NCBI GenBank assembly: GCA_964016885.1
Contig: OZ024764.1
Coordinates: 20,088,001-20,152,000 of the forward strand
From: Eledone cirrhosa
Taxonomy: Eukaryota
Direction of reading: 5' to 3'
Length of the DNA: 64,000 bases
The position numbers and the translations under genes are program-made. The notes under the pieces are model-generated. The model saw only the letters and a program-made list of their open reading frames with translations, had not been told where the DNA came from and made no database searches. Shown piece by piece: positions 5,220-58,200 of the stretch (within the stretch, counting starts at the first letter, position 1; the number at the start of each line of letters is the position of its first letter).

Positions 5220-6499
5220 TAGTGAGAGAGAAACACACAAACGTACACTACTGTAAAACACATGTAAGGGGAGACAATTCTCGTTACATTCCCCCTTCTT
5301 TTTGATATACGTTCTTTATATGTTTTGTACAATGAACTCTGCTTTATTTTGTGTCCTAAGTAGATTTCTGTTTAAGTATTTACGAGATTCACAATGATTC
5401 ACGTAACCAAGTTACTTACATAGAGATATATTTCACATAGAATCACAACAAATGAAAATATTAAGTCAACACTCTGTCAATCAGTCTCACATCACATGGA
5501 GTGCTGGAGTCTCCTTCTAATACTTTCTGAGACAGTCTTACCTCGAGTGATAGCAAGGCTAAGATGTTGGAACTACCAAACACCCTCATATGTATCACCT
5601 GACACCTCGGTAAGGAGAGCTGCCAACGATAACAAGAACCTCGTTGTCAGGGACCTATCTCCTCCAAACTTCTCCAACACCACAGACTAGAATATTCTAC
5701 TCTTTATTCCCTATCAAATATATTTCAGTCTAGTCATTTATCTTGTATCTTGTATATGTATTTTCAAAACTAACTGTCACATTTGTGAGACCCCAGTTAG
5801 TGATGTTTTTGTCTCCCTCCCACATCCTACATGCTGTAGTAAAAGTGAGGGTCACTGCTTCCGTAGACGAACGAAATAAAAGCTAAACTACCAGTAATTA
5901 TCGGCAAAGTATTTATTCCAGTCTGATGTTTGAGAAGCTGGGCTGCTGACAACTAAGTTGTGGTCACTGTTGGCAGCTGGCTTTACCGAAGTACCCGATG
6001 ACTCTTGTGAGGGTACTTATCTGTTCTGGCAACTTAGCCTCCATATGACCCGATCTTACCGAGATACACGGTGATCTCTGTCAGGGTACTTAGCTGTTCT
6101 GGCAACTTAGCCTCCATATGACCCGAGATACCCGGTGATCTCTGCCAGGGTACTCGATTGATCCAGCACCCTACTATTTCTACCAACAGGTTATATCGAG
6201 GTATCAAGTGATACTCTTTTCAAGTCAAGACCTCCTCTGCTGTCCTCTGTCTTCCAACTGCCCTGTTATTCTACAGACTCACGAAAGTGGACACCACCTG
6301 AAGGAGAGAGTGGTTGGTGTAGTGGTCATCGCTGGCTATTGTTCAAGTGACACAGGTAAAATACACTACCTAGACTGAGGTGAAACGTCTACCGTCCATT
6401 CCTCACCACCAACACCTTACTTTCTCTATTTTAATTACATTTACTGTTTTCAACTTCACTTTTTATTACAAACTTTACAGAATTTAATTCGGTAAAAAT

Positions 6500-6636
6500 A
6501 TTTTTTACGTCACAAAAATCCTTGAAGCATGCGCAGTGGTGCAGTTGTCGACTTCCTGTCCACGTGTTAGTCTTCCTACAACATCATTTAGACAACATTT
6601 CTGTAAATACTAAACACCTGAGACTATAATGTAAGT
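6500..6636 (+). promoter_or_regulatory. Promoter-like module plus non-coding first exon and splice donor (copy 1 of 5)
   Basis: TTACGTCA (CRE/ATF-like, 6505), GCATGCGCA (NRF1-like, 6527), ACTTCCTG (ETS, 6551), CACGTG (E-box, 6561), donor AT|GTAAGT at 6631; near identical in five copies. Confidence 0.6.
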
Positions 6637-6879
6637 ATTATGTCTATTAATATTGTAGATTTAAGCTCACTTTTCACATCACAAATATATATTTTCTTCG
6701 CTCAACCTTAAGTCTCACGTCAGAAATGAAATTTATTTACATTTTCGATTTATTAAAAACTATTGTTTTTCTGAATACAAAAACTGGTTGGACGACTACG
6801 GGCTGGCACTACGTTAGTTGATGTAAATGACATCGTTAATGAGAATACTACACTTGTTACTCTTATACCTGTCATACAC

Positions 6880-7384
6880 GGTGACAATCTATGTTACAGT
6901 GGCTGGTAAGACGGCAGTGACAGTGTCAATTGTCCTGTTTGTAATGAAACCTGCACATTAAACCATTATTCTGAGACTCACAAGAAATGGAGATGGCGAT
7001 GTAACCCCGACAATGTCTCCCAAGCAGTGCGACATAATTGTTTTTTTCAAGGAAGCCATGTGCCACTCGATCACCTTATTTGTATTTTATACATGTGGTG
7101 CTACAATTATACACAAGCTGAGATGATTCGAGAAACGGGAGTCTCCCAACCGACAATTATTGACTGGTGCAATTTTATTCGAGAAATTTGCCAGCAATAT
7201 TTGGAGGAAAATCGCCAACAACTTGGAGGCTTCGATGACAATGGTGAGTCCATCATTGTCGAGATCGACGAGAGCCAACATGGTACCAGAGCTGCTTTAT
7301 TTCAATCTTATATTGCAGTCTTTGGCGACAGAGAGTTGGTGCCAACAAGTTTGGCGAGATGATAAACTGCATTGGAGCAATTGA
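6880..7384 (+). pseudogene. Merlin/IS1595-family DDE transposase fragment
   Basis: Zn-ribbon-like CPVCNETC..KWRWRC, then R..FFQGS..L..ILY.W, TIIDWCNFIREIC, LGG...IIVEIDES. Catalytic core deleted after DES. Confidence 0.82.
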
Positions 7385-7494
7385 TATGGTGTTTCATTAC
7401 TGGAAATATAAAATGTTATGGTAATTATCTATATTTTACCTCACACCTTAGGGGTTAACTACACACTTTGAGGCAAGCCAACACACTGGCAGCA

Positions 7495-7669
7495 ATACCA
7501 CGGGTGATGGTGAGGCTAAGGTGCTTAAATAACCAGGTACCCACACGGGTATCACCTGGTACCTCGGTAAGGCGAGGCTAATGTGCTGAAATAACCAGGT
7601 ACCCTCACGGGTATCACTTACACCTCAGTAAGGTGAGGCTAAGGTACTGAAATAACCAGGTACCATCAC
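7495..7669 (+). repeat. 62-bp tandem repeat (~3 units), Merlin subterminal array
   Basis: Unit ctcggtaaggYgaggctaaggtgctgaaataaccaggtaccctcacgggtatcacctgRYac; the period of 62 is clearest at 61141/61203/61265/61327. Confidence 0.85.
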
Positions 7670-8021
7670 GGAAACGACTAGATTTGTAGAAAAAGTAGGG
7701 TGAAAGTATACGAAGAGATGTAGTTTCACAGATCTACTCACACCTCACGTTGGGTGGGAAATAATTATTTTTCTTAGATTTTTTTCTAGACCCCTTTTCA
7801 ATATTTTCTCTGAACCCCTTAGATACTTGCAATAGACGTTTTATTCCCCGGTGTTAGGGTTTCCATTTTCAGGAAGAAAAGTCGATTGCAAACATCTAAG
7901 AGGTCGAGAAATGAAATTAAGGAAAGATAATTATTTCCCAGCCAACTGGAGAAGTGTGTAGCTCTTCTAAACTCCGATAATCCTGTCTCCCACTTCTTTA
8001 TCTACAAATCTAGTCGTTTCC
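7670..8021. mobile_element. Foldback MITE with GGAAACGACTAGATTTGTAGA TIRs (Merlin-like ends)
   Basis: 21-bp perfect TIR (7670-7690 / 8001-8021) plus an internal imperfect palindrome (gggaaataattat / ataattatttccc); no TSD visible. Confidence 0.8.
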
Positions 8022-8139
8022 TGCTACTTTGAAGGCCCTATTTATTGATAACACCACTTGTAAATCTTTGTGTACTTTTCATACGTAAATTGTGAATCAG
8101 TTATTTTTAAACAAACTATCAAAGAAGTGATCTCACAGT

Positions 8140-8875: not shown

Positions 8876-9125
8876 TGTGGGTAGAAAAAGCTATCTCACC
8901 GCTTTTCACAGGCGCCGTTAAATTCCACTGCAGGTTACTCCTCTTCCACGTGCGTCCATCTTCTTAACACCGGGAGCTGCCCAAAACTCGCGTCCACACC
9001 GTTTGCTGGTCACCACTAGAGAGAGGCCCTCTGCTGGCCCTTCCGGTCGAGCATCCTTCCAGCCAAACACCTTCCGGTCGAGCATTCCCCCGCCTCAGGC
9101 CACCGCACGCCACACCATACCCACA
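8876..9125 (-). repeat. 3' LTR
   Basis: TGTGGGTA...TACCCACA terminal inverted repeat; homologous to 12714-12961. Confidence 0.9.
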
Positions 9126-9142
9126 CGCCCCCCCCCCTGATC

Positions 9143-11718
9143 TCAAGGATCAATTTCCCCCTCGTCCCTCTGCATATGAAAGTCTGCTGTCCAGGTCGGT
9201 AGTCTACGACTTTGTTGCGATCTTCGTAGTATTGGGGCAGAGCTCTGGGTTCCCACCTCATCTTGGGTTTCCTCTTCCTCGGAGTCCGTCGACACAGTGA
9301 TTCTTCTTACGTCCAGGATATGACGTGGCACCCCGTCCACGGACACATTGTTCTTTGAATTTACGGCCGTCACCGTTCCCCTTCCCCATTGAGATGTGCA
9401 ACGTGCATCTGGGGGCTTAACACAGACTTCTTCGCCCACCTGCACGAATGCACTCTCTCTCCCCACTGGCCGTTGTGGTGGCGTGCACGGGTGCCGCCAC
9501 TCGTATTTGAATACTGCTCTATGTGGCACCGATTCATCGACCTGTCCAACCCGAGGGGACATTGTACCAGAACACTGCCTACATTGGTGAGATATGGCCC
9601 CGCTCCGCCATTGCCTTGATCGTCCGGTGGTGTCGCTCCACGATTCCATTCCCGCTCGGCCTCTGCGCCGCTCTGAAGAAACGGTCCACCTTCCATCCAT
9701 CGAGCATCTCCCTCAGTGCCTCCGAGCAGAACCATCCGCCGTTGTCCATCAGCAGTTCGTCCACAGGGCCCCGCTCCAAGAACACCTCTCTCAACGTCCG
9801 CATGATTTCCTCGGCCGTTCCAGTCTTCATCTCCCTCCATATCGCCATCCGTCCTGGTCCACAGTCGACCATCGAGAGGTATGTTCCCTGTCGGTAGTGC
9901 GTTACATCCACCGCCAATCGTTTCCAGTCGCGATCCACTGGAAGGCTTCCCGTTTCGTGTACACCCGGGGTGGATCAATGGACTGACATCGGATGCAGCC
10001 TCTAACCACCCTTTGAACACTGTGACTGTTAACGTCCGAGTCGATTCTCCTGGCTAGGAACAGGCTCCTATCCACTCCCATGTGGTGCATGTCATGCAAC
10101 CCTTTCAGATCCGACTCGCTCAGCCGACACACGGCAGCTATCTCATCTTCTACCTCCTCCGGCGCTGCCATCCAGGCTTTCTTCACCCTAGTTAAGATGT
10201 CCGCCCTATTTTTCTCTGAGGGCACGAAAACTACGCTCAGCCTCAGAACGAACTCGGTGGCCAGCTCTCCTAAAGTTCCCAGGCGGCGCTTTATCAGCAT
10301 CTCCGCCGCGCCTCTCGTTCGCACTCTCTTCTCACTGGTGAGCACTGATCTCACCCATCCGAGTACAGTAGCCGAGTCGGTACGTTTCTCGATGGTGCGC
10401 AGTCCCCACCTCAGGGTGAGGTTCACCCCTCTCAACACTGCGTCCAGTTCGGCCACATTGATGCATCCTCGACCTCAACACCTCCTATCTCCAACGTGAC
10501 ACCCAGCGCTATGCTGCTGGCATCGCACCATACGGTCCCGCTCTGTGATTTGGGAACATACCAGCGTCGCCGCACTGGGTCGTCGGCCTTCACCCTCCCC
10601 ACGATCTCCTGCATCATGGCCACCATCCTCTCTCCCACTCTGTCACTCCAAGTCACCCCTCCCGCTCATCTCTTGACATAGCTGCATGCCGTCCGGAGCC
10701 ACCCAGCAATCGGGTAGTGACCCACCAACTTTCCACACACCGAGAAAAGCTCCCGCCTACTCATACTTGGGCCCAGTTCTGGAACTTCATTTCCCCTCTG
10801 GAATACCAAGACGCCCGTCCTGTCTCGCCGTAGCCTAAGTCCCAGCGCGGCTCCTCCCTCCAACGCTTCTGACGGCTTCGCAGCCAGTCCATACCTCGTG
10901 ACCTCCGCCGCCGCCACCACAGACTCGTCCACTAGGATGTCGTCAATATAGGAGTTAGTGGCCCACTTCATCTTGTCGGACTTTCCCAGAATGGTCTTGA
11001 GGACCGCCGCCATGATCTTCGGTGCGGAGCTCAGCCCGAATCCGAGCTTGGTCAGGCAATATGTCCGGCCCTTATACCTGACCAGCTGATACTGCCAGAG
11101 CTTCTCATCTATATGCAATTGCAAGTAAGCCGACTTTAGATCTACGATTGCTGAACCCCCCGTCATGCGTCTCCACTCACGCAGGGTTTCCCCACAGACA
11201 TCCGTGACCTCGCCACCCGTGTGGCATGACAGGTGCTCGTTCAGCTCCCGAAAGTCCAGCACCGGCCTCACCTTGTTCTTCGTGGGTTGCGCCACCGCCA
11301 TTAACGGCAATACTCTGCACTTCACCTCCTCTTTCCAGGGAAGCAGTATGCCCTCCTCAATCCATCTCTCTACCTCGCTCCTAATAGTTTCCTTTCAATG
11401 TGTGTTGATAGCAGCCCACTTTGGTCTTCAGTGTTGGTGGTTCTCACTTCCAGTACCACTCAACAACCCATTGCACACGGCCTTGAAGTCTTTGTCCTGC
11501 ACAGTGTAAGCGGGGTATTTCTCCTCGTGGGCCTTCTGGTTCTCCTGTCGCGCACTCACAGCGCATACCGATGCAGCGGCGCCAAACGACACACCGACGT
11601 TGTTCACTGTGACGCCTCCTAGACGGCCAATTGCGTCCATGCCCATAACCACGCCAATCCCATCCACCTTACTTTCCTTCCCCGTACCGCTATTTCCATC
11701 TCGCTGCGACCTCAGCAT
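9143..11718 (-). pseudogene. Gypsy pol (protease remnant, RT, RNase H, integrase), frameshifted
   Basis: VVMGMDAI; VRPVLDFRELN, VDLKSAYLQ, FGLSSAP, YIDD; WCDASS, AELDAV; LH..HH.G..CIRCQ; AVDVTH, LMDNG, GNGIVER. Confidence 0.9.
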
Positions 11719-11918
11719 TCAATTTTCCTGCCGTCGACTGCCCTTACACTGCTCTTCCCTCTCCACCTCTGCGCCATCAGTGTCGTCAAACAGCCCGTGT
11801 CCACGAGTGCTCGCTGTGGCTTTCCCCTCACGAAGACTTCCACCACGGGCAGCGCCTCTACTCGTAAGGGGAAACTACCAGCGCAGTAGTTCCCCTTGGA
11901 TTGTTTCCCTGGTCGCAG

Positions 11919-12593
11919 TTAATACCGGTAGCATATTATTTCCAGCCTTGACTCTCTGCAGTCTCTAGCCATGTGCGGTCCCTGGCACCAAAAACAGCGA
12001 CCCCTAAACGTTCGCGGGCGACCGCGTGCCGCGGTTGCCTCCCTTTCACCATTTCGCTGCCAGCTGTCTTGAGCCTCTGTAGTTGCTATCGCTGCAACAC
12101 TCTTCTTGGCATCTTCTGCTATGATCCAGGCTTGTTCCACCAGTGAATGCATTTCCATTTCTTTGTAACCCGGGACTTGCTGCAGTTTCACCGCTATGTC
12201 GTCTGGAAATCCATTTATGAACGCCAACCGCACCGTGCATTCGCATTCCACCTGATATCCAGCCAACATGGCCAATCGCCGTATTTCCGCTGCGAAAATT
12301 TCAACGCGTTCACCGTTCCATCTAATTCTTGCTAGCTTAGCGAAAGCGGCTAACGGTCCCTCTGCGAACGCTTCCATCATGCGCCTCTCAATCTTTTGCG
12401 CATCTCTTTCGCTGTGTTCGTCCAACTCAAGGAAGAGTACCAACGCGTCCCCCTCGAGGTACAGTGCCATGAGGCCAGCCACATCTTCTATCTTCTGCAA
12501 GCTTGCGACCAGCCGGACTTTTCGCAGCCAAGCGACATCAACTACCCCGGTAAATGCCCTGATAGCTTCGCTTGTTCGTAGTCTTGTCGCCAT
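11919..12593 (-). pseudogene. Gypsy gag with CCHC knuckle
   Basis: LYLEGDAL, AFINGFPD, CFWCQGPHMARDC, second knuckle cut by a stop codon. Confidence 0.85.
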
Positions 12594-12713
12594 CTTCTAA
12601 TTTGTCTTGCGGTACGTGATAAAAAAAAAACAACAGACTCCTCTTTGTTTTTCCAGTAGCTTATTTATTTATTTTTTTTCAATCAGATCTCAGTTTCCAG
12701 TGCCGAAATAGCT

Positions 12714-12961
12714 TGTGGTTAGAAAAAGCTATCTCACCGCTCTTCATAGGCGCCGCTAAATTCCACTGCTGGTATCTCCTCTCCCACGTGCATCCAACTC
12801 CTTAACACCGGGAGATGCCAAAACTCGCGTCTACACCGTTGCTGGTCACCACTAGAGAGGGCCATCTGCTGGCCCTTCCGGTCGAGCATCCTTCCGGCCA
12901 AGCACCCTTCCGGTCGAGCAATCCCCTGCTTCCGGCCACCGCACGCCACACCATACCCACG
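12714..12961 (-). repeat. 5' LTR
   Basis: tgtggttagaaaaagctatc...ccatacccac; visibly diverged from 8876-9125. Confidence 0.9.
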
Positions 12962-12962
12962 T

Positions 12963-13834
12963 TTTTATTAAAAACTTCACATAATTTAATTCGGTAAAAA
13001 TATTTACGTCACAAAAAAACTTGACCTTTGACATTGAAGCATGCGCAGTGGTGCAGTTGTCGACTTCCTGTCTACGTGTCAGTCTTCCTACAACATCATT
13101 TAGAAAACATTTCTGTAAATACTAAACACCTGAGACTATAATGTAAGTATTATGTCTATTAATATTGTAGATTTAAGCTCACTTTTCACATCACAAATAT
13201 ATATTTTCTTGTTTGTTTCATTACTGGAAATATAAAATGTTATCGTAATTATCTATATTTTACCTACCTCTAATTAATTAAAGTGAAAACTTTTGTTGTT
13301 GCTGAAAAATAAATTAACAAAACTAAATATTTAAATATTCTAAAGGTCGTTTTTATATTATGTGATGATATAATTAATATACTTTATTACAATTGTATAA
13401 ATTTACAGTAGAATAACGTTGTAAATATGTTTTAAATATATACATAAATAACATAAGTGTGTAAATAACATTATAAATTGCTGGCAATTCCTTGAGAAAC
13501 ACATTACAAATATATTGCCTAAACTGTGTATAATAATATAATTTATTGAACAATAATGATAAAGGAAAGAAAAACACAGTGGGAGATGGCAATTGACCAC
13601 CAGGTGTGATAATAGGCCACACCTCACACCTTAGGGGTTAACTACACACTTAGAGGCAAGCCAACACACTGGCAGCATTACTAAGGTGTTGAAATAAACA
13701 GGTACCCTCACGGGTATCACCTGGTACCTCGGTAAGGCGAGGCTAATGTGCTGAAATAACCAGGTACCCTCACGGGTATCACTTACACCTCAGTAAGGTG
13801 AGGCTAAGGTACTGAAATAACCAGGTACCATCAC
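12963..13834 (+). mobile_element. Merlin derivative copy 2 (transposase deleted) with promoter module (13004-13148) and 62-bp repeats
   Basis: Matches 6460-6698 and 7388-7669; GCATGCGCA at 13039, donor at 13143; E-box mutated to TACGTG. Confidence 0.7.
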
Positions 13835-20300: not shown

Positions 20301-20948
20301 TAATCTGAGGTCACTATTAACTACTTTTATCAGTCAGTTTAATCTGATATCACTAATAACTACTTTTATCAGTCACTTTAATCTAATGTCACTAATAACT
20401 ACTTTTATCAGTCAGTATAATCTAATGTCACTAATAACTACTTTTATCAGTCAGTTTAATCTAAGGTCACTAATAACTACTTTTATCAGTCAGTATAATC
20501 TACTGTCACTAATAACTACTTTTATCAGTCAGTATAATCTAATCTCACTAATAACTACTTTTATCAGTCAGTTTAATCTAATGTCACTAATAACTACTTT
20601 TATCAGTCAGTATAATCTACTGTCACTAATAACTACTTTCATCAGTCAGTATAATCTAATGTCACTAATAACTACTTTCATCAGTCAGTATAATCTAATG
20701 TCACTAATAACTACTTTTATCAGTCAGTTTAATCTAATGCCACTAATAACTACTTTTATCAGTCAGTATAATCTAATGTCACTAATAACTACTTTTATCA
20801 GTCAGTATAATCTACTGCCACTAATAACTACTTTTATCAGTCAGTATAATCTAATGTCACTAATAACTACTTTTATCAGTCAGTTTAATCTAATGTCACT
20901 AATAACTACTTTTATCAGTCAGTTTAATCTACTACCACTAATAACTAA
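20301..20948 (+). repeat. 39-bp tandem repeat, ~16.5 units
   Basis: Unit taatctaatgtcactaataactacttttatcagtcagtW; translates as MSLITTFISQ(Y/F)NL repeats. Confidence 0.95.
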
Positions 20949-21075: not shown

Positions 21076-21092
21076 TCTTTTATTATTTCAGA
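21076..21092 (+). promoter_or_regulatory. Probable splice acceptor of the ZNF terminal exon
   Basis: ttcttttattatttcAG|aatacc; conserved at 35230; similar ttcAG|aata junction at the relic exons. Confidence 0.6.
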
Positions 21093-21903
21093 ATACCAGA
21101 GGACATAGGCATTAAAGAGCACGTTACATCAGACATATCCTCAATATTTACCATTTCTAAAATATTACCCATCATTTTCAAATAATTTTGAAAACACTCA
21201 ACACTTTGAAGGGATTTAATAATATAACTAAATTTCTCAGTATTAAGCTGCTATTTGGAACATAACTTTGCACAATTTCATGAAGTTACAATGGAAAGTT
21301 TTTAGATAAATATAAAGACTGGTATGAAAATGATAAAACACTTTTATATCAGTTGTTTCATCAACACCATTATTTATAGACTAAAGGAAGCTGTTATACA
21401 GAACAGACACAACCTTGTTTATATAAATCTATGGGAGAAATACTGGAAAATATTTCTTGTAAACTCAATAACACTTCTATTCTTTGCTGTCTGGAATATG
21501 TAGAAGATACAAAATAAAGCAGAAGAAATTTACACATGATTTTGTAATATCTTCATATATTGACAAAGATGATAGTTGATGGAACTACAGGAGTAGAAAT
21601 ATTTCCATTATTACAGGAATAACTAATCAAATAAAAACCAAAAAAATTAGATTCTTCACTGTCTGGAATATGTACAAGATGATTTTATATGTATATTAAA
21701 CTTGAAGAGATCTACAAAACAGTTTGTATCATCTTTAAATATAAAGAAAGACCAAGTTGATGGAAATATATCTGGAGGAATATGTTTTAGGAATAATATT
21801 ATAAACATAAAGAAGAAAAATATCCATATATTGACAGAAGAAAAATATTAAAACTGTGAATTATGTGTGAAACTGAGGTCATTGATATCTTTTAGTAGGA
21901 GTT

Positions 21904-23187
21904 ATGTCGAAAAATATAGTAAAATCACCATTCCACTGTGATATCTGTGACAAATCATTCTCTCGTAGTAATCAGCTAACTACTCACAAACGTATTCATA
22001 CAGGAGAGAAGCCTTATAAGTGTGATATCTGTAACAAAACATTCAGTCACAGTAGTAGCGTCAGAGTTCACAAACAAATTCATACAGGAGAGAAGCCATA
22101 TCACTGTGACATCTGCGGTAATTCATTCTCTCAGAGTAATCACCTAACTACTCACAAATATATTCATACAGGAGAGAAACCATATCACTGTGACATCTGT
22201 GGTAAATCATTCTCTCATAGTAATCACCTAACTACTCACAAACGTATTCATACAGGAGAGAAGCCTTATAAGTGTGATATCTGTAACAAATCATTCAGTC
22301 ACAGTAGTAGCATCAGAGTTCACAAACAAATTCATTCAGGAGAGAAGCCATATCACTGTGACATCTGCGGTAAATCATTCTCTGACAGAAGTAGCTTTGT
22401 TAAACACCATCGTATTCATACAGGAGAGAAGCCATATCACTGTGATATCTGCGGTATTTCATTCTCTCAGAGAAATCACCGAATGACTCACAAACGTATT
22501 CATACAGGAGAAAAACCATATCACTGTGATATCTGTGGTAAAACATTCTCTGAAAATAATAATCTAGCTACTCACAAACGTATTCATACAGGAGAGAAGC
22601 CATATCATTGTGACATCTGTGGTAAATCATTTTCTCGTAGTCACCTAACTACTCACAAACGTATTCATACAGGAGAGAAGCCATATCACTGTGATATCTG
22701 TGATAAATCATTCTCTCATAGTAAAACCTTAACTACCCACAAATGTACTCATACAGGAGGGAGGCCATATCACTGTGATATCTGTGATAAATCATTCTCT
22801 CAGCATAAAACCTTAACTATCCACAAACGTACTCATACAGGAGAGAAGCCATATCACTGTGACATCTGTGGTAAATCATTCTCTCATAGTAATACCTTAG
22901 CTATCCACAAACGTACTCATACAGGAGAGAAGCCATATCATTGTGACATCTGTGGTAAATCATTCGCTGACAGAACTAGCTTAGCTACCCACAAACGTAC
23001 TCATACAGGAGAGAAGCCATATCACTGTGACATCTGTGGTAAATCATTCTCTCATAGTAATACCTTAGCTACCCACAAACGTACTCATACAAGCGAGAAG
23101 CCATATCCCTGTGACATCTGTGGTAAATCATTCAGTCACCGTAGTAACTTAACTACCCACAAACGTACTCATACAGGAGTACTCTGA
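21904..23187 (+). CDS. Tandem C2H2 zinc-finger protein, 15 fingers, no effector domain visible
   Basis: 427-aa ORF of CxxC-x12-HxxxH fingers with TGEKP linkers; finger 9 one residue short; AATAAA at 23502. Confidence 0.92.
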
Positions 23188-23887
23188 CAGTAGTACCTTA
23201 ACCAAGCATGTGTGTATTCATACAGAAGTTTAGCTGTATCAATATCAAACTCATTACATCATACTACAACAACAACAACAATTGTGTAGATCCATCATCC
23301 TGGCTAAAACTGAGGTTAACCTTGTAGGTTTTACCTATGACAGGGATCATAAACACCAGGTTTCTATTTTTGAAGCAGTGTTTGAAGATTTTGTGTAAAG
23401 TAAAGTTTTTCACATTAAACTTTGATTTATTATACTTTAACAGGTAAGATATATATTTGTATTTTTAGTAAAGTTGGGAACTTCTGTAATTTAAACCTGC
23501 CAATAAAATGAAAACTTTTGTTGTTGCTAGTCTGACATTGATATTAATTCTATTGTCCTGTACATTGTCTCAAATATCACAGATTAAACAGATTTTAACA
23601 ATAACAACAGAAATCAATAACTTGTAAGCCTAATATCTAGCTTCCATTTTAACTATTTGATATTGTTGTTCCTCTCCTATCTCTTCAGGTCTTTTAGATT
23701 TCAACTTCTATCTACTGTACTATTCCATCACCAAGGCAACATTCATCTGGCTGGCAGCTTACATCAACTACAGATCTCATCAGTGGTTCACAACAGGCTG
23801 TCTGAAAGAAACTTCCAGATATCTTCTATGTCATAGCTATCAATCTCATCCTCCTTATCATATGTATCATGTAGAACATCTCTGAAT

Positions 23888-24132: not shown

Positions 24133-24421
24133 ACCTAGTATCTAGTCTATGTTGAGTGGTACGTCCTTCTCCAGTAAAGGAGTTAATATTCCCAACCATC
24201 TGTCTATCCTGTTTTCTGATGAGAATGAAGTCAATCTAGTTTATCTCTTCACCTGATTGAAGTAACTAGATCAAGTAACTAGATGGTTTCCTGTAAGTTA
24301 GTGTTGCAGTGTTTGTGTCACCATGTAAGGTTTATATCTATTAATATAGAGATGTAGTAAAGTTTTCACTGTTGTATCTCTATTTTCTAAATATCTTAAT
24401 AATGTTTCTCTACTATTTCAG

Positions 24422-24780
24422 AATATCACATGACCTTGACAGAAAAGAGTCTTTTAAAGACAACAGAAAGATGTTACATACAAGTGATATAAACTTGTTT
24501 AGTCTGTGGTGAATTATGGTGAAATATTTCTTCTGAATTGTGATAAATAACAACATTTTCCTTTTTCACTGTCTGGAATATTTACAAGATGATTTTACAT
24601 TCTGATTAAACTTTGGATATTTACAAAGGAGTTTTCAAAATATTTGGATATTGACAAAGATCACATTTGATAAAATTATGAACAATAGAAATATTTACAT
24701 CAACATAGGAATATTTTCCAGAAGAGATGGGAAAATCATTATACCACTGTAATATTTGTGGTAAAGTATTCTCTATTCTT
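24422..24780 (+). pseudogene. Relic ZNF terminal exon
   Basis: ttcAG|aata acceptor, shares the ctgtctggaatat...caagatgatttt motif with the ZNF 5' region, ends in MGKSLYHCNICGKVFS; copies at 38073-38430 and 50439-50798. Confidence 0.65.
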
Positions 24781-30089: not shown

Positions 30090-31642
30090 AGAGAGAGAGA
30101 AACACAAACATACACTACTGTATTACATATGTAAGGGGAGACAACTCTCGTTACATCCACCCTACTTTTTGAAATACGTCCATTAAATACTTTGTACAAT
30201 GGAACCTGCTTTATTTTGTGTCCTAAGTAGATTTCTGTTTAAGCATTTACGAGATTCACAATGATTCACGGAACCAAGTTACTTACATAGAGATATATTT
30301 CACATAGAATCACAACAAATGAAAATATTAAGTCAACACTCTGTCAATCAGTCTCACATCACATGGGGTGCGGAGTCTCCCTCTAATACTTTCTGAGACA
30401 GTCTTACCTCGAGTGATAGCAAGGCTAAGATGTTGGAACTACCAAACACCCTCATATGTATTACCTGACACCTCGGTAAGGAGAGCTGCCAACGATAACA
30501 AGAACCTCGTTGTCAGGGACCTATCTCCTCCAAACTTCTCCAACACCACAGACTAGAATATTCTACTCTTTATTCCCTATCAAATATATTTCAGTCTAGT
30601 CATTTATCTTGTATCTTGTATATGTATTTTCAAAACTAACTGTCACATTTGTGAGACCCCAGTTAGTGATGTTTTCGTCTCCCTCCCACATCCTACATGC
30701 TGTAGTAAAAGTGAGGGTCACTGCTTCTGTAGAAGAACGAAATAAAAGTTAAACTACCAGTAATTATCGACAAAGTATTTATTCCAGTCTGTGATGTTTG
30801 AGAAGCTGGGCTGCTGACAACGAAGTTGTGGTCACTGTTGGCGGCTGGCTTTACCGAAGTACCCGATGACTCTTGTGAGGGTATTTAGCTGTTCTGGCGG
30901 TTTAGCCTCCATATGACCCGATCTTACCGAAGAACCCGGTGATCTCTGTAAGAGTACTTAGCTGTTCTATTTTAATTACATTTACTGTTTTCACCTTTAT
31001 TTTTTTTTATTACAAACTTTATGTAATTTAATTCGGTAAAAATATTTTTACGTCACAAAAAAACTTGACCTTTGACATTGAAGCATGCGCAGTGGTGCAG
31101 TTGTCGACTTCCTGTCCACGTGTTAGTCTTCCTACAACATCATTTAGAAAACATTTCTGTAAATACTAAACACCTGAGACTATAATGTAAGTATTATGTC
31201 TATTAATATTGTAGATTTAAGCTCACTTTTCACATCACAAATATATATTTTCTTGTTTGTTTCATTACTGGAAATATAAAATGTTATCGTAATTATCTAT
31301 ATTTTACCTACCTCTAATTAATTAAAGTGAAAACTTTTGTTGTTCCTCAAAAATAAATTAACAAAACTAAATATTTAAATATTCTAAAGGTCGTTTTTAT
31401 ATTATGTGATGATATAATTAATATATTTTATTACAATTGTATAAATTTACAGTAGAATAACGTTGTAAATATGTTTTAAATATATACATAAATAACGTGT
31501 GTAAATAACATTATAAATTGCTGGCAATTCCTTGAGAAAGACATTACAAATATATTGTCTAAACTGTGTATAATAATATAATTTATTGAACAATAATGAT
31601 AAAGGAAAGAAAAACACAGTGGGAGATAGCAATTGACCACCA
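30090..31642 (+). repeat. Duplication block with Merlin derivative copy 3 and promoter module (31048-31192)
   Basis: Matches 5220-6098, 6426-6698 and 13210-13600; GCATGCGCA at 31083, donor at 31187. Confidence 0.85.
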
Positions 31643-32379
31643 AACGAGGTAAACATTTTCAACTTTCCCCCTTTTCTTGCTTTGTCCGAGACAACTCAAA
31701 ATATTCTTCAAGGAACTGGATTTTCCATTCGGTTGGATCGAACGGATTTTACCATTTATAATCTACGGAGAGGCATAACAGATGTTCGGAGGAAAAAAGA
31801 ATTGTTTGTGTCAACAACGTAGGGAACCAACCTGGAGCAATTGTATCACACAATTATACTTTCCTCCTTAACATACACTTACAATTTTTCAAAATCAAAC
31901 CCTCCAAATATAAAATATAAATAATTATAAATGGCGAGGAACCATCCCATCTCCCTCTTGAAATAACCTGAATCTATTTATAGTCAGGTGTGACTGAAAG
32001 GTCAATCCATACTTCCATTCTATTTCACAGAATTAGAAGCTTTGACCACTTGATAGAATTCAGGTCCAGTAATGTAATCACTCCGTAATTGTAAACATCT
32101 TGTATCACTATCATTCAGGTTTTGATTTTACTTAAGTCTTGCCCATGTTTTTTTTTTTTTTTCTTTTTTTTTTACACAACCTCACAATTTCGGTTTTTAC
32201 TGCGGATCTACCCATGCGAACTATTACACAAACTCACAGCCTTAGATTTTGTATTTCTAGCGTTTTTATTTTCCTTCTCTTTGCATGTTCAGTGCTCTTT
32301 CTCTCCCACTGTATTTATCTGCCTCTCACATGACCACACTCCTCTCTACGCACTCATCATCTTCTCACTCCTTCTACAC

Positions 32380-33850
32380 CTTCCATCGCTGGCCCTCTAC
32401 TGCCGGCTGTTGCCAGCCCGCCACCTGATTGCGCCCTCTGTGCCCGCACTAACCAGTACTTAAAGACAATTAAATGTCACCTATGCCACACAAGCTACCA
32501 CAGAAGCTGTGTCAGCATCACCAAAGCTCAAGCCGAAAGGCTTCAACACTGGACCTGTCATCGGTGCCACTTCAGCTCCGTCTATTCCGTGGTTTTGACC
32601 AACACTCTACCGACGACTTTGCCAGAGCCCCCCAGGGCTTCTCCAAATCAAAGCTCCTTAGGAGCCCCGATCACAGATCTGGCCTTCGAGTCAACCATCC
32701 AATCGAAGATGGTTGGCCTTGAGCAGCTGCTGAGGAATATTGAAGATATCGAACCCCATCAAAGTTTCTTCTTACTCAGGAACTACCTGTCTATTCCTAA
32801 GCTTCTGTATCTGCTCAGGGTCAGCCCCTCTCACAGATTTCCATCCTGCCTCCAACGCTTCGACGACCTAATCTTCGAGAGACTCGAGTGTCTGGTCAAT
32901 GTTAGTAAGTGTTCGTCCCTCTCTCTCCCCTGCTTCCTTTCCTCCACCCAAGCTTGCAGCATCCTGTCCTCTCCAACATGGACTAGTTCCAACAGGGAGT
33001 TGTGTGAAGCTCTCCAGCAATGAGTTGGGCTTGTCTCTTCCTGAGAAGGTGGAGGACAGTCGAAGTCAGAGAACTTGGGACAGGATACGTTGGAATGCCA
33101 CCTTCGACTCCCTCTTTGTCCTCTCAGATCAGTTTACAAGGTGCCGCTTACCTTCTACCAGCGCCAAATACTCCGGTGACTGGGTCGATGCCTTACCCGT
33201 GGCCAACGTTGGAGGCCTACTCAGCCTGGATGAACTTCGTGTCTCCATCACCCTCAGAGTGGGAGCTGACGTCTGCATGGGTTTGAGATGTGGCTAACTC
33301 CTCGACTCCACAGGCCCCCACAGTCTTTCTTGCTGCCTGAATGCCGGCCACTTTGCCCGTCACACAGAGCTAAACTTTATTCTGAAGAGAGCTTTGGCCC
33401 GGGCAAACATCCCCTCGGTCTTGGAACCATCTGGGTTGTCCAGAAGTGACGGCAAAAGACCTGACGGCCTTACCCTGTGCCCCTGGTCGAGAGATAGGTG
33501 CTTAATCTGGGACGTCACTGTTAGTGACTCCTTTGCTCTTTCCCACATCCTTGATGCTGCGGTAAGGACGAGAGCCACAGCTTCGGCAGCCGAGCGGAGT
33601 AAGACCCTCAAATACTCTGATCTGTCGGCCAGCTACATTTTTCAGCCTGTGGGTTTCGTGACGTTTGGGGGAGTCGGGCCGCTGACTGCGAGTTTCCTTT
33701 CTTCACTGGCGGCTCGCCTTGTAGAGGTAACTGGCGAAATCGCGAGGGCGCTTGGCTGTTCCAGCACTTCAGCCCCGCCATCACCCGAGGTAACACTGTC
33801 AGTGTGCTGGCTTGCCTCAATACTCATTAGAGAGGTTTCCCAGTACCCCT
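32380..33850 (+). mobile_element. CRE-like non-LTR retrotransposon fragment (RT end, CCHC, restriction-like endonuclease)
   Basis: LLRNYLSIPKLLYLLR, SGDWVDALP..G, R.G...RCG..D..G.H.LSC, RH..LN, LEPSGL.RSDGKRPDGLT..PW...L.WDVT..D, AE..K..KY. Confidence 0.85.
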
Positions 33851-34622
33851 CGTTGCTGTCTTTTGCTCTGGTGTTGGCTCCGTTGTCCACCCCTTCCTTT
33901 ACATTTTCTTTAATATTGCAACATTGAAGGAATTTATCTTTCATTGTATCATCCTTTATCTACAAATCTAGTCGTTTCCTGTTACTTTGTTCCCTGGGGT
34001 ATGCCTTAGTATTTGACACCATCTATCTGTCTTACTCCCTAACTAGCAAGAAGTCAATCTGTCTCATGTGCTCACCTGATTGGTAGGTTATTAGGTGGTT
34101 GGTAGGTTTCTTGAAGTGTTGCAAATGGTTAGTTCACTTGCATCACAAAATACAAGAAGACTCACTCCTTCTTCGTTTCTTGAGCCATAACCATGACCAC
34201 CATGTACCCCAGTGTATCCATCCTGGAGCTGTCCAACATGACCATTGAAGTCCCCTGCTATTATAACTAGGTCTCTGTCATTGTGGTTATCTCTACTTAT
34301 TCCTTTTCTACATATGGAGCAGGGCCACTTTCCTGAATGGGTCAGGGTCTTCTCTCCTATCCATTACCACTTTAGTTTTGGCTAAGTATATTCTCAGAAC
34401 TTACCATTTCAAATTCTATATCTATAGTTGGTCATCTACATAGAGAAGTTTCCATAGACAGCCAGTCTTAAACCTCTCTGTTATGGCTTGGAAAACTATG
34501 ATGAACAACAGTGGGCTGAGAACTAAACCATGATGAACTCCTACCTGTACCTTCAATTCCTCACTAAAAACACTTTACTGACAGCTTCTAACAAGCCATT
34601 CTTCTACACCTAATTTCCTTAA

Positions 34623-34828: not shown

Positions 34829-34829
34829 T

Positions 34830-35087
34830 TAATCTAATGTCACTAATAACTACTTTTATCAGTCAGTTTAATCTAATGTCACTAATAACTACTTTTATCA
34901 GTCAGTTTAATCTAATGTCACTAATAACTACTTTTATCAGTCAGTATAATCTACTGCCACTAATAACTACTTTTATCAGTCAGTTTAATCTACTGCCACT
35001 AATAACTACTTTTATCAGTCAGTATAATCTACTGCCACTAATAGCTACTTTTATCAGTCAGTATAATCTACTGCCACTAATAACTAA
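34830..35087 (+). repeat. 39-bp tandem repeat, ~6.5 units
   Basis: Same unit as 20301-20948. Confidence 0.95.
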
Positions 35088-35441
35088 CCTATGTTAGTCA
35101 GCACATTCTTCACCAAGGAAGGCCTTAGTATTTATTACAGTCCATTTATCAATATAGAAATATTATATGAAATTTGTACTGATGTATTACAAGTTTCTCA
35201 GTATCTTATAATGTTCTTTTATTATTTCAGAATACCAGAGGACATTGGCATTAAAGAGCACGTTACATCAGACATATCCTCAATATTAACCACTTCTAAT
35301 GAAAGACACTACCCATCATTTTCAAATAATTTTGAAAACACTCAACACTTTGAAGTGATTTAGTAATATAACTAAATTTCTCAGTATTAAGTTGTGAATT
35401 ATGTGAGAAACTGAGGTGATTGATACCTTTTAGTAGGAGAT

Positions 35442-36539
35442 ATGTCGAAAAATATAGTAAAATCACCATTCCACTGTGATATCTGTGGTAAATCATTCTC
35501 TCGTAGTAATCACCTAACTACTCACAGACGTATTCATACAGGAGAAGAGCCATTCCACTGTGATATCTGTGGTAAATCATTCTCTCAGAGTAATCACCTA
35601 ACTACTCACAGACGTATTCATACAGGAGAAGAGCCATTCCACTGTGATATCTGTGGTAAATCATTCTCTCGGAGTAATCACCTAACTATTCATACAGGAG
35701 AGAAACCATATCACTGTGATATCTGTGGTAAAACGTTCTCTAAAAATAATAACCTAACTACTCACAAACGTATTCATACAGGAGAGAACCCATATGATTG
35801 TGATATCTGTGGTAAATCATTCCCTTGTAGTCAGCACCTAACCACTCACAAACGTATTCATACAGGAGAGAAGCCATATCAATGTGATATCTGTGATAAA
35901 TCATTCAGTGACAGTAGTAGCTTCAGTGTTCACAAACAAATTCATACAGGAGAGAAGCCACATGACTGTGACATCTGTGGTAAATCATTCAGTCACAGAA
36001 ATACCTTAACTACCCACAAACGTATTCATACAGGAGAGAAGCCATATCACTGTGATATCTGTGGTAATTCATTCTCTCAGAGTAATCACCTAACTACTCA
36101 CAAACGTATTCATACAGGAGAGAAGCCATATCAATGTGATATCTGTGATAAATCATTCAGTGACAGTAGTAGCTTCAGTGTTCACAAACAAATTCATACA
36201 GGAGAGAAGCCACATCACTGTGACATCTGTGGTAAATCATTCGGTAATAGAAGTAGCTTAGCTAACCACAAACGTACTCATACAGGAGAGAAGACATATC
36301 ACTGTGACATCTGTGGTAAATCATTCTCTCATAGTCATAACCTAACTACCCACAAACGTACTCATACAGGAGAGAAGCCATATCACTGTGACATCTGTGA
36401 TAAATCATTCTCTCATACCTTAACTACCCACAAACGTACTCATACAGGAGAGAAGCCATATCACTGTGACATCTGTGGTAAATCATTCTCTCAAAGTGGT
36501 ACCTTAACCAAGCATGTGCGTCTTCATACAGAAGTTTAG
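35442..36539 (+). CDS. Tandem C2H2 zinc-finger protein, 13 finger units (3 and 12 shortened)
   Basis: 365-aa ORF with the same [12 protein letters not shown] start as 21904; TGEKP linkers; AATAAA at 36809. Confidence 0.92.
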
Positions 36540-37208: not shown

Positions 37209-38566
37209 TCTATCTACTGTACTATTCCATCACCAAGGCAACATTCATCTGGCTGGCAGCTTACATCAACTACAAATCTCATCAGTGGTTCACAACAGGC
37301 TGCCTGAAAGAAACTTCCAGATATCTTCTATGTCATAGCTATCAATCTCCTCCTCCTTATCATATGTATCATGTAGAACATCTCTGAATTTATATTTAAC
37401 GGGGAGATCTTTTACTGTCCTTACCCCTTTTGCTAGATTGTCTTGTACCTCTCTCACAGTCCCTCTAGATCTTATATTTAACAGGGAGATATTTTACTGT
37501 CCCTACCCTTTCCTCTAGATTGTCTTATTACATTCTCACAGTCCCTATATATCATATTTAACAGGGAGATTCTTTACTGTCTCTACCCTTTTCTCTAGGT
37601 TGTCTTGTACCACTCTCACAGTCCCTCTAGATCTTATATTTAACGAAGCTATTTTACTATCCCTACCCTTTTCTCTAGGTTGTCTTGTACCTCTCTCACA
37701 GTCCCTCTAGATCTTATATGTAACAGGGAGGTCTTTTACTCTCCACCCCTTCTATCTCCAGATAGTCTTGTATCTGTCAGTCCCTCTAGATCTTACACCT
37801 AGTATCTAGTCTATGTTGAGTGGTATGTCCTTCTCCAGTAAAGGAGTTAATATTCCCAACCATCTGTCTATCCTGTTTTCTGATGAGAATGAAGTCAATC
37901 TAGTTTATCTCTTCACCTGATTGAAGTAACTAGATGTTTTCCTGTAAGTTAGTGTTGCAGTGTTTGTGTCACCATGTAAGGTTTATATCTATTAATATAG
38001 AGATGTAGTAAAGTTTTCACTGTTGTATCTCTATTTTCTAAATATCTTAATAATGTTTCTCTACTATTTCAGAATATCACATGACCTTGACAGAAAAGAG
38101 TCTTTTAAAGACAACAGAAAGATGTTACATACAAGTGATATAAACTTGTTTAGTCTGTGGTGAATTATGGTGAAATATTTCTTCTAAATTGAGATAAATA
38201 ACAACATATTCCTTTTTCACTGTTTGGAATATTTACAAGATGATTTTACATTCTGATTAAACTTTGGATATTTACAAAGGAGTTTTCAAAGTATTTGGAT
38301 ATTGACAAAGATGACATTTGATAAAATTATGAACAATAGAAATATTTACATCAACATAGGAATATTTTCCAGAAGAGATGGGAAAATCATTATACCACTA
38401 ATCTTTGTGGTAAAGTATTCTCTCTTCTTTATATGTAGAACATCTAACTAAACACTTTAACTAACAAACTATTGTGCTATAGAATTGACAAAGTTGAAGA
38501 ATGTTTAATAAATGTTACAGATTTCTCCAAACTGTCGTTTACTAACTTTAATTTGAAGCTATATTA

Positions 38567-46329: not shown

Positions 46330-49300
46330 AGACAAATACATCTATACCTCTACTACTGTCAAACATAAAACATATGTAAGGAAAGAGAACTCTCGTTTCA
46401 TTCCCCTCTTCTTTTTGACATACATTCTTTAGATACTTTGTTCAATGGAATCTACTTTATTTTGTGTCCTAAGTAGATTTCTGTTTAAGTATTTACGATA
46501 TTCACAATGATTCACGTAACCAAGTTACTTACATAGAGATATATTTCACATAGAATCACAACAAATGAAAATATTAAGTCAACACTCTGTCAATCAGTCT
46601 CACATCACATGGGGGTGCCGGAGTCTCCCTCTAATACTTTCTGAGACAGTCTTACCTCGAGTGATAGCAAGGCTAAGATGTTGGAACTACCAAACACCCT
46701 CATATGTATCACCTGACACCTCGGTAAGGAGAGCTGCCAACGATAACAAGAACCTCGTTGTCAGGGACCTATCTCCTCCAAACTTCTCCAACACCACAGA
46801 CTAGAATATTCTACTCTTTATTCCCTATCAAATATATTTCAGTCTAGTCATTTATCTTGTGTCTTGTATATGTATTTTGAAAACTAACTGTCACATTTGT
46901 GAGACCCCAGTTAGTGATGTTTTCGTCTCCCTCCAACATCCTACATGCTGTAGTAAAAGTGAGGGTCACTGCTTCCGTAGACGAACGAAATAAAAGTTCA
47001 ACTACCAGTAATTATCGGCAAAGTATTTATTCCAGTCTGTGATGTTTGAGAAGCTGGGCTGCTGACAACGAAGTTGTTGTCACTGTTGGCGGCTGGCTTT
47101 ACCGAAGTACCCGATGACTCTTGTGAGGGTACTTAGCTGTTCTGGTGGTTTAGCCTCCACGTGACCCGATCTTACCGAGATACCCGGTGATCTCTGTCAG
47201 AGTACTTAGCTATTCTATTTTAATTTCATTTACTGATTTCAACTTCATTTTTTTATTACAAACTTTACATAATTTAATTCGGTAAAAATATTTTACGTCA
47301 CAAAAAAACTTGACCTTTGACATTGAAGCATGCGCAGTGGTGCAGTTGTCGACTTCCTGTCCACGTGTTAGTCTTCCTACAACATCATTTAGACAACATT
47401 TCTGTAAATCCTAAACACCTGAGACTATAATGTAAGTATTATGTCTATTAATATTGTAGATTTAAGCTCACTTTTCACATCACAAATATATATTTTCTTG
47501 TTTGTTTCATTACTGGAAATATAAAATGTTATCGTAATTATCTATATTTTACCTACCTCTAATTAATTAAAGTGAAAACTTTTGTTGTTGCTGAAAAATA
47601 AATTAACAAAACTAAATATTTAAATATTCTAAAGGTCGTTTTTATATTATGTGATGATATAATTAATATATTTTATTACAATTGTATAAATTTACAGTAG
47701 AATAACGTTGTAAATATGTTTTAAATATATACATAAATAACGTAAGTGTGTAAATAACATTATAAATTGCTGGCAATTCCTTGAGAAAGACATTACAAAT
47801 ATATTGTCTAAACTGTGTATAATAATATAATTTATTGAACAATAATCATAAAGGAAAGAAAAACACAGTGGGAGATGGCATTTGACCACCAAGTGTGATA
47901 ATAGGTCACACCTCACACTTTAGGGGTTAACTACACACTTTGAGGCAAGCCAACACACTGGCAGCATTACTAAGGTGTTGAAATAACCAGGTACCCTCAC
48001 GGGTATCACCTGACACCTCGGCAAGGTGAGGCTAAGGTGCTGAAATAATCAGGTACCCTCACGGGTAGCACCTGGTACGTCGGTAAGGTGAGGCTAAGGT
48101 GTTGAAATGACCAGGTACCCTCACGGGTATTGTCTGACACCTCAGTAAGGTGAGGCTAAGGTGTTGAAATGACCAGGTACCCTCACGGGTATTGTCTGAC
48201 ACCTCAGTAAGGTGCTGAAATAACCAGGTACCCTCACGGGTAGCACCTGGTACCTTGGTAAGGTGAGGCTAAGGTGTTGAAATAACCAGGTACCCTCACG
48301 GGTATCACCTAACACCTCGATAAGGTGAGGCTAAGGTGCTGAAATAACCAGGTACCCTCACGAGTATTTTCTCTGGACCCCTCAGATACTTGCAATAGAC
48401 GTTTTATTCCCCAGTATTAGGGTTAGGGTTTCCGTTTTCAGGAAGAATAGTCGATTGCAAACATCTAAGAGGTCTAGAAATAAAATTAAGGAAAGATAAT
48501 TATTTCCCAGCCAACTGGAGAAGTGTGTAGCTCTTCTAAACTCTGATAATCCTGTCTCCCACTTCTTTATCTACAAGTCTAGTCGTTTCCTGCTACTTTG
48601 AAGGCCCTATTAGGGTTAGGGTTTCCCTTTGAAGGTAAATTGTGAATCAGTTATTTTTAAACAAACTATCAAAGAAGTGATCTCACAGTAACTGTGTTGG
48701 ATTCAATCAACTTATTCCCCCTAAACATTGTCGACCTTGTGTCTAAATCAGAAACTATTATTAGATCTTAGATCAACCCCGTAAAGATGAAGGGCAAAGC
48801 TAACCTCGGCGGGATTTCAACCCTTTATGTTATGAGTTCAAATCCCACCAAAGTTAACTTTGTCTTTCATTCTAACGGGGTGGATAAATTAAAGTTCCAG
48901 TAATCTACTGTGGTTTGAGATATTAAGGTTTGAGTAGATTCTATCTTTTTGTGTGTTTGTATTTATAATCTTACTAGAACACCTGTGACCTGTTGGGTCA
49001 CGTTCCCTTTAAAAATAATGTTTAAATAATTAAAATATACACAGACATGTCTATAATCTAAAATGAAATTAGTAGGTAGGCCCATGTATATATATATATA
49101 TGCGTGTGTGTATATATATATGTGTGTGTGTGTATATATATATGTCACAGACACACACACACAAGTCGCTTGTTATAATTTTAAAATTTCGTTCAACAAC
49201 ACCAACAGCTCTCTCTCTCACACACCCATTATCTTTCTCTCTCTATTTATGAAGGTACCAGAAAAACCCATATCTCGGGAACCTGTGCTTTGATCTACGT

Positions 49301-49450: not shown

Positions 49451-50798
49451 TACCCTGCTTGCAAGGGTGGGACGGGAACTGATACTGGCTTGATTTCTAC
49501 AGCTGGATGCCCTTCCTAACACCAACCTCATTTACAGTGAGTGCTGGGTGCTTTTTCGTGGCGCCTACACGTCCACTTTACAGTGTGGGCTGGGTGCTTT
49601 TTTGCGGTGGGGGCATATTGTCTATATGCTTCAGCTTGTACCCATGGGAGGTCGGGTACTCTGTATTACTGCGTGACGCCAGAGGTCACGATCGTGTGTC
49701 ATTGCCTTTGAGAGGTGTAATTGGGTAAGCTCGGCTTCTATCTACTGTACTATTCCATCACCAAGGCAACATTCATCTGGCTGGCAGCTTACATCAACTA
49801 CAGATCTCATCAGTGGTTCACAACAGGCTGTCTGAAAGAGACTTCCAGATATCTTCAATGTCATAGCTATCAATCTCCTCCTCCTTATCATATGTATCAT
49901 GTAGAACATCTCTGAATTTATATTTAACAGGGAGATGTTTTACTGTCCCTACCTCTTTCTCTAGGTTGTCTTGTACCTCTCTCACAGTCCCTCTAGATCT
50001 TATATTTAACAGGGAGATATTTTACTATCCCTACCCTTTTCTCTAGGTTGTCTTGTACCTCTCTCACAGTCCCTCTAGATCTTATATTTTACAGGGAGAT
50101 ATTTTACTCTCCAGATAGTCTTGTATCTGTCAGTCCCTCTAGATCTTACACCTAGTATCTAGTCTATGTTGAGTGGTACGTCCTTCTCCAGTAAAGGAGT
50201 TAATATTCCCAACCATCTGTCTATCCTGTTTTCTGATGAGAATGAAGTCAATCTAGTTTATCTCTTCACCTGATTGAAGTAACTAGATCAAGTAACTAGA
50301 TGTTTTCCTGTAAGTTAGTGTTGCAGTGTTTGTGTCACCATGTAAGGTTTATATCTATTAATATAGAGATGTAGTAAAGTTTTCACTGTTGTATCTCTAT
50401 TTTCTAAATATCTTAATAATGTTTCTCTACTATTTCAGAATATCACATGACCTTGACAGAAAAGAGTCTTTTAAAGACAACAGAAAGATGTTACATACAA
50501 GTGATATAAACTTGTTTAGTCTGTGGTGAATTATGGTGAAATATTTCTTCTGAATTGAGATAAATAACAACATATTCCTTTTTCACTGTTTGGAATATTT
50601 ACAAGATGATTTTACATTCTGATTAAACTTTGGATATTTACAAAGGAGTTTTCAAAGTATTTGGATATTGACAAAGATCACATTTGGTAAAATTATGAAC
50701 AATAGAAATATTTACATCAACATAGGAATATTTTCCAGAAGAGATGGGAAAATCATTATACCACTGTAATATTTGTGGTAAAGTATTCTCTATTCTTT

Positions 50799-55254: not shown

Positions 55255-55288
<34 letters not shown>

Positions 55289-55335
55289 AATGAATAATAA
55301 CAGGTAGACATCATAAAAAGGTAGTTTATTCCGTG

Positions 55336-55447
55336 TGCTTACAAGTGTTTCCACGGTGGTACTGCAGCCTAGTTCCGCTACGTGCAAATTCACAAGTATT
55401 TGCAGAACTCGAATATCCAATGCTGTGACCACTGTTTCCTCAGAGCA
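55336..55447 (-). ncRNA. Hammerhead-like motif, inverted copy
   Basis: Reverse complement of 58201-58312. Confidence 0.55.
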
Positions 55448-57707: not shown

Positions 57708-58200
57708 CATTCGAACCCGTAACTACAACACCACTTTCTAGCTAACAACCTTCTCTTCTCCCCCACACTACAAGACAATACACTGCTTATCACTATACAT
57801 GGTAACTCAGTACAATTCCTAGATTACTACTACAAAACCAAAAGTTCACTCACCACATATACTTTATCTGTCCCCTCTCTACCTATATATCTCTCTCTAC
57901 ATCCATTACACTCTCTCTCTCTCACCTTTGACCTACCTCCCTCTCAACATCTATGAACTTGACCTCTGGGGCAATAAATAATTCCGACCTCAACTATCTA
58001 CGCATCTCTCCAAAAGTAACTAATAAAACCCCTACCATATCATTTTGATTAAGATATCTACAAGCCACTCTCTCCTACTTCTCCAACCCCTGCATATCTT
58101 TCCTTCTCTCTCCATCTTCCCTACTTTTCTCTCTTCTTGTTCCACTCTATCTTCCCCAACAACCCCACTTAAGGGTTTTTACATTGTATATTTACCATTC

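Follow-up and report, generated by a model that had tools for sequence, protein, structure and literature searches.

Does the short promoter-like module that recurs near zinc finger genes in this 64-kb stretch of DNA (hereafter, the window) descend from a transposon, or is it a part of the host genes? A preliminary description had taken it for the promoter of a Merlin transposase that was exapted as exon 1 of the C2H2 zinc finger (ZNF) genes. We examined the module and its copies, the ZNF genes, the transposase remnant, the flanking repeats, and contigs of public runs.

As had been described, the module was found five times in the window, always on the forward strand, with the donor G at positions 6631, 13143, 31187, 47432, and 60572. 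Copy 1 (6491–6630) carries a promoter-like motif cluster at 6505–6566 and reads as a non-coding exon ending at 6630. The upstream flank of copy 2 (13004–13142) is replaced by an LTR ending at approximately 12960. Copy 3 (31048–31186) lies 4044 nt upstream of a ZNF acceptor at 35231, the nearest ZNF-type acceptor to copy 4 (47293–47431) is that of a truncated paralog at 50439, and copy 5 (60445–60571) is followed by no ZNF exon within the window. The LTR next to copy 2 belongs to a minus-strand LTR retrotransposon (8876–12960; LTRs at 8876–9124 and 12714–12960, 90% alike) with RT and DUF7047 matches, which abuts the module.

The motifs GCATGCGCA, ACTTCCTG, and ATGTAAGT were present in all five copies, as proposed, but TTACGTCA and CACGTG were each present in only four of five. 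We take these motifs to be NRF1, ETS, E-box, and CRE-like sites. The motif cluster is beyond chance: all four motifs occurred together in 0 of 20,000 local shuffles, and no other 100-nt interval of the 64 kb contained even two of them. The CpG observed/expected ratio was 1.41 at 6485–6570, compared with 0.53 across the window. The composition of the cluster suggests that the module may act as a promoter. All five copies lie within segmental duplications of kilobase size and were therefore counted as one duplicated event, not as five independent observations. The module had been singled out as almost unchanged; its divergence (1.2–1.9%), however, is on a par with that of the flanking sequence, which is 1.9% on the upstream side (copies 1, 3, and 4) and 1.4% on the downstream side (copies 2–5). 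Purifying selection on the module was rejected on the same ground, and the absence of differences over the first 67 intron nucleotides was not clearly beyond chance.

Contigs of four of eleven public runs, none of which is recorded as RNA, were aligned to 6150–7500 at 80%; their depth does not equal copy number, and contigs cannot show transcription starts. One contig of run X4, whose kind is unrecorded, departs from the window at 6630 and goes on as a ZNF acceptor exon of the 35231 type. Its 164-nt unaligned part was assigned by comparison of the first 30 letters, which gives the type of the exon and not the locus. The ends of the junction are GT-AG, with a GTAAGT donor and a TTTCAG acceptor. 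The cover in X4 was 269 on the exon and 31 in the intron, which suggests that this run behaves like RNA. The predicted junction between the module and a ZNF exon was thus seen, and this junction, together with the position of the copies in segmental duplications, bears out the proposal that the module is an exon duplicated with the ZNF unit.

The window contains two forward-strand ZNF genes with a large acceptor exon. ZNF gene 1 (21092–23187) has its ATG at 21904 and a C2H2 array with 14 zf-C2H2 stretches in Pfam; ZNF gene 2 (35231–36539), with its ATG at 35442 and a C2H2 array, represents the type of splice partner seen in the X4 contig. A 39-nt minisatellite lies approximately 150 nt before each acceptor (20301–20947, 16.6 units; 34829–35086, 6.6 units). 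In addition, three near-identical truncated ZNF paralogs were identified at 24325–24780, 37976–38430, and 50342–50800; two of the three have a remnant of the ZNF start, at 24727 and 50744, which breaks off in the first finger. Each paralog retains a forward-strand GT-AG intron of 97 nt (24325–24421, 37976–38072, and 50342–50438), which matches both the donor flank of the module and the acceptor flank of ZNF1/2. The acceptor side of this intron aligned with the ZNF2 acceptor with a z of 15.3 (0 of 1000 shuffles), and the donor side aligned with 6629–6697 with a z of 6.2 (0 of 1000). The latter outscored every other non-self match in 3194 tiles (53 vs 40), and it still did so when the donor consensus was left out (43 vs 35; z 5.1, 0 of 2000 shuffles).

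The donor GT and the start of intron 1 (6631–6698, forward strand) are therefore homologous to the short intron of the ZNF paralogs, and the match stops at 6697, at the junction with the Merlin piece. Since the 68 nt between the donor and the Merlin piece match this intron, a host intron separates the module from the transposase. The motif cluster and the exon body (6480–6630) did not align with the region upstream of the paralog intron (272/1000 and 574/1000 shuffles were as good), so host ancestry is established for the donor and the intron only; for the promoter motifs, no match was found in the one type of older paralog in the window. Extension of the paralog-intron homology across the junction of copies lacking the Merlin piece (the empty junction) added nothing significant (2258/3000). 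Two further comparisons, one across the empty junction and one between the AT-rich intron block behind it and ZNF UTRs, were likewise dropped as not significant (46 and 83/1000). ZNF1/2 have a possible dead donor approximately 115 nt before the acceptor, which is weak by itself (102/2000). The ZNF 3′ UTR (23440–23530, 36809) contains a site resembling a donor, and behind its AATAAA stands a word shared with the AT-rich intron block of copies 2–5; the overall similarity between the two was not significant.

The Merlin-type fragment is located at 6699–7389 on the forward strand, in copy 1 only, and consists of an 85-nt leader piece and a dead transposase. The remnant at 6784–7391 was 61% identical over 176 amino acids to P0001, the sole match among 30 candidates, which carries PF12762 (DDE_Tnp_IS1595); a Pfam search with the remnant itself returned 0 families. 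The same-strand IS1595/Merlin remnant reported beside copy 1 was thereby confirmed. Its start position, 6784, reads CTG, one in-frame stop is present, and its homology to P0001 reaches the last residue or stop position. No intact DDE triad was found in the remnant: the first block is kept, and residues ~174–283, including the catalytic core, are deleted. Copies 2–5 join 6698 to 7390 with 3 other letters in place of 6699–7389, close to the shared loss described before (6698–7388). No convincing TIR or TSD was found for this piece. The ends that had been proposed, 5903 and 7669, showed no inverted match (261/1000 shuffles were as good), and their flanks differ, with no TSD. The Merlin piece is probably a TIR-less internal fragment and a passenger in intron 1.

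Is this piece an insertion into copy 1 or a loss in copies 2–5? The empty joint 6698→7390 was found in X1, X4, and X5, with a depth of 2287 in X1, and Merlin-bearing contigs had depths of 169 in X1 and 6 in X4. Copies with the Merlin piece (the filled form) thus do exist and are probably the minority. In X1, the loose ends listed include one at 7441 and none at 6491. Behind the piece, an AT-rich intron sequence (7390–7441, forward strand) is common to all five copies and is approximately 380 nt longer in copies 2–5, copy 3 diverging near its end; this gap of copy 1 after 7441, like the absence of ~6101–6428 from copies 3–5, had escaped the preliminary description. Because 38 X1 contigs at 7438 continue as copies 2–5 do, the ~380-nt gap is derived, and this deletion sits 50 nt from the Merlin piece. 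Copy 1, on the other hand, shows the ancestral state at 6101–6428, yet its exon is identical to that of the empty copy 5 (0/113 differences). The copies are thus mosaics, and parsimony is unsafe; a tree of the module copies was set aside, as the informative sites conflict (6, 3, 2) and the row of copy 4 is poorly aligned. On balance, insertion into copy 1 is favoured over loss in copies 2–5.

X5 was rejected as an outgroup for this direction: it has the empty form and no cover at 6702–7299, but its depths on shared parts are approximately 1/400 of those of X1, so the run may merely sample a very similar genome thinly. In a free relative from X5, the sequence after 7390 is unrelated, for which UTR divergence between families could also account. 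An X8 match at 6468–6506, with 7 differences in 39, was taken as chance. The sequence 6215–6428 occurs only in copy 1 within the window, yet it is present in X1 and X4. A 954-nt contig of X4 (record 12, depth 130) encodes a related Merlin transposase; it aligned to 6985–7013 and 7150–7269 and continues through the catalytic region that the remnant of copy 1 has lost. It possibly represents an intact, expressed Merlin family in the same species.

The inverted arrays around copy 1 had been regarded as subterminal repeats of the Merlin. Known Merlins have TIRs of 24–462 bp with terminal GG, TSDs of 8–9 bp, and, in some cases, internal tandem repeats (PMC8101967); the Merlin reading of the arrays was therefore reasonable, but it is wrong at this locus. 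Both arrays arose by tandem duplication of a retrotransposon ORF at its 3′ end, and they are not TIRs. The left array region (5781–6130, forward strand) derives from a non-LTR retrotransposon ORF, of which it retains the 3′ end with a tandem 73-nt duplication (array 5983–6126), and has colinear DNA matches of 60–71% to 33505–33792. The right array (7468–7671, reverse strand) is the same ORF end with a tandem duplication of 61–62 nt and is 72% identical to 33698–33820 (E 3.3e-18). A third fragment of this end (5531–5695, reverse strand) is 68% identical to 33637–33800 (E 1.6e-21). A decayed ORF at 33298–33927 is matched at its 3′ end by all three (60–72%). The arrays are only ~71% complementary to each other, and on the left the match reaches out to 5781, approximately 120 nt beyond the proposed boundary at 5903. 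An inverted pair at 7670–8031, considered as a Merlin MITE, was rejected, as its ends match 33954–33989 behind the retrotransposon ORF and a TSD is absent.

The ORF at 33298 had 363 relatives among 5064 candidates, with RVT_1 in many of the 120 relatives listed. In a tblastn search with these 120, the right array was matched by 8 and the fragment at 5531–5695 by 4; the left array was matched by 0 of the 120 and rests on the DNA matches. Searches of PDB and the Atlas with the ORF end yielded no name. The decayed non-LTR retrotransposon (32334–33990, forward strand) encodes a PHD finger, a C-terminal zinc knuckle, and a PD..D..K endonuclease, and we assume that it belongs to a CRE-like clade. 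Its single-ORF relatives, of ~970 amino acids, have PHD or SAP, RT, and a C-terminal knuckle plus PD..D..K, and in P0004 and P0008 the RT is followed within one ORF by the zinc knuckle and a restriction-like endonuclease; unlike such full elements, only 3′ ends with local tandem duplication occur around the module. The ORF end forms minisatellites of 2.5–6.6 units that vary between copies. The retrotransposon-derived end at 7438–7500 is very abundant in X1, where its summed depth is ~18000, and possibly represents a SINE-like family. Elsewhere in the window, an 820-nt inverted repeat, 99.9% alike, surrounds ORFs at 56067–57707 (55280–58368); these presumably are of the Penelope type, with RT and a GIY-YIG endonuclease, and a Pfam search with 56393–57115 gave no match.

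The proposal of the preliminary description can now be weighed. If the module was a Merlin promoter, an old Merlin would have begun at 6491, with both the motif cluster and an intron of the 5′ UTR in its leader; the ORF and the acceptor would have been lost from copies 2–5, and the orphan donor would now splice to the ZNF exon. That the module lies on the same strand as the transposase and that copy 1 is ancestral at 6101–6428 agree with this proposal. A scan with P0001 yielded 80 related metagenome loci, and 35 with long or N-terminal matches were examined. A 5′ TIR pattern was found in 14 of the 35, 99–200 nt before the ATG (the distance of L061 was corrected, as its match starts at residue 24). 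TSDs were likewise not evident in the flanks given for these loci, probably owing to collapsed assemblies. Leaders of this length would place the left end of the Merlin at ~6584–6685, downstream of all four motifs, while 6491 lies 293 nt before the start, past this range. In a TIR profile built from 9 TIR types, true TIRs left out in turn scored 18.5–34.5 bits, and the best site within 400 nt upstream, 6491, scored 6.5 bits (rank 11 in the window; 70/2000 local shuffles). This weak match is the main residue of support for a Merlin origin, but the sequence at 6491 is nearly palindromic and scores on either strand, and copy 1 alone has it in register. As the left end of a shorter Merlin (6491–7441), it had no significant 3′ partner (232/1000, 112/1000, and 746/2000 shuffles); pairing it with a TSD-like match of 6/8 at 7445, noted by eye, likewise gave no significant arm pair. 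The possibility that the module is an antisense exon of a Merlin 5′ end in reverse orientation was rejected, as the profile does not rank the end at 7438–7441.

Related leaders do carry ETS-like (3/9), E-box (1/9), and CRE (1/9) motifs, but an NRF1-like motif and a sense GTAAGT were absent in 9/9, and the region 6460–6698 had no sense-strand similarity to any of the nine. The leader piece at 6699–6783 likewise matches no related leader, so the leader comparison is low in power. On the reverse strand, leader L019 resembled the module region (8/300 shuffles), as 1 of 27 tests. The exact 21-nt core of the module was found in 0 of the 80 related loci, the related transposase contig of X4 did not align to the module at 80%, and no free-standing copy of the module was seen among the loose ends listed. 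Given these leaders, the ZNF-type intron between module and ORF, and the retrotransposon origin of the supposed boundaries, we hold the Merlin promoter to be very improbable, and so too a variant in which the cluster at 6491–6570 is an old Merlin leader grafted onto the ZNF exon and amplified with the whole subfamily. Antisense GTAAGT sites lie between the TIR and the ATG in three of the nine leaders (L002:1135–1304, L014:65–215, and L038:443–639), and an outward-facing spliced transcript from Merlin leaders is possible; the word TCTGC is common to six of the nine.

Two other origins deserve consideration. The donor may be ZNF-derived while a rearrangement a little way before the exon end captured the motif cluster from another TE or gene promoter. 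The lack of homology between 6480–6630 and the paralog upstream region would fit such a capture, as would a neighbourhood made up of TE pieces and broken by deletions. No donor element was found, however, and the loose ends listed for X1 offer no second context for the module. Moreover, truncated as the paralogs are, their promoters may have decayed or lie farther off. We regard such a capture as unlikely. Alternatively, the module may be an internal exon of the 5′ UTR, or the contig with the splice junction a retrocopy, the motifs not driving transcription. The junction comes from one contig of one run of unrecorded kind, which cannot show a start, and no such cluster is found in the paralog exon that precedes the short intron. 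Against this stand four promoter-type motifs within 62 nt together with the CpG enrichment, the lack of a clear acceptor in the sequence before the exon, and the fact that copies 2 and 5 kept the module despite losing their upstream flanks; an internal exon or a retrocopy thus seems highly improbable.

The reading that we prefer, with a probability of roughly 0.7, is that the module belongs to the host: it would serve a recently amplified C2H2-ZNF subfamily as 5′ non-coding exon and probably also as TATA-less promoter, with TE debris lying in intron 1. Transcription would start near the NRF1/ETS/E-box/CRE-like cluster. The exon ends at the GT at 6631 and would, as in the one contig, be joined to the large ZNF exon at the AG that precedes it, across 4–14 kb of TE debris. 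As the alignments show, the donor descends from the family's own short intron 1, which the three truncated paralogs retain. The present exon 1 might perhaps have been borrowed from an upstream paralog, at which the dead donor of ZNF1/2 faintly hints. Exon, putative promoter, and flanks were copied jointly by the segmental duplications. The Merlin fragment lies in intron 1, which it would have entered in only the smaller part of the copies. The arrays are separate retrotransposon ends.

The locus resembles the C2H2-ZNF expansions of coleoid cephalopods, in which recent multi-finger duplicates lie in tandem amid TE remnants (PMC12513265, PMC12988792). Tandem duplicates may share regulatory elements (PMC12513265), but the words "promoter" and "exon" are absent from the main text of that paper, whereas here a shared element is located and seen to splice. 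Members of zebrafish ZNF clusters likewise share an alignable first exon and have promoters of TATA or TATA-less classes (PMC10547256); translation there starts in the first exon, whereas here exon 1 is non-coding and the ATG lies in the large exon. The remnant is of the Merlin/IS1595 type, falling by sequence in a clade with DDE_Tnp_IS1595 and GG-ended TIRs. In contrast to the Merlins of PMC8101967, the locus is without a convincing TIR, TSD, or catalytic core, and its arrays come from a retrotransposon. As in TE-derived first exons known from LTR exaptation, a promoter-like exon beside a TE splices into a host gene; in LTR exaptation, as far as its available descriptions go, the exon lies inside the TE consensus, and the module exon is outside TE-homologous sequence. 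The best-ranked matches of a literature search, supplements aside, contained no Merlin promoter in ZNF genes.

A Merlin origin, if true, would be a rare case of a DNA-transposon promoter behind the expansion of a gene family, one such promoter driving many ZNF genes that may themselves control transposons. The locus also holds a trap, as opposed, tandem-duplicated retrotransposon ends can mimic Merlin subterminal repeats. The question of co-regulation is raised by papers such as PMC12513265, in which we found no such elements named. The module is a candidate shared promoter and first exon of a young, high-copy ZNF subfamily, and as such it may offer a handle on co-regulation after tandem duplication.
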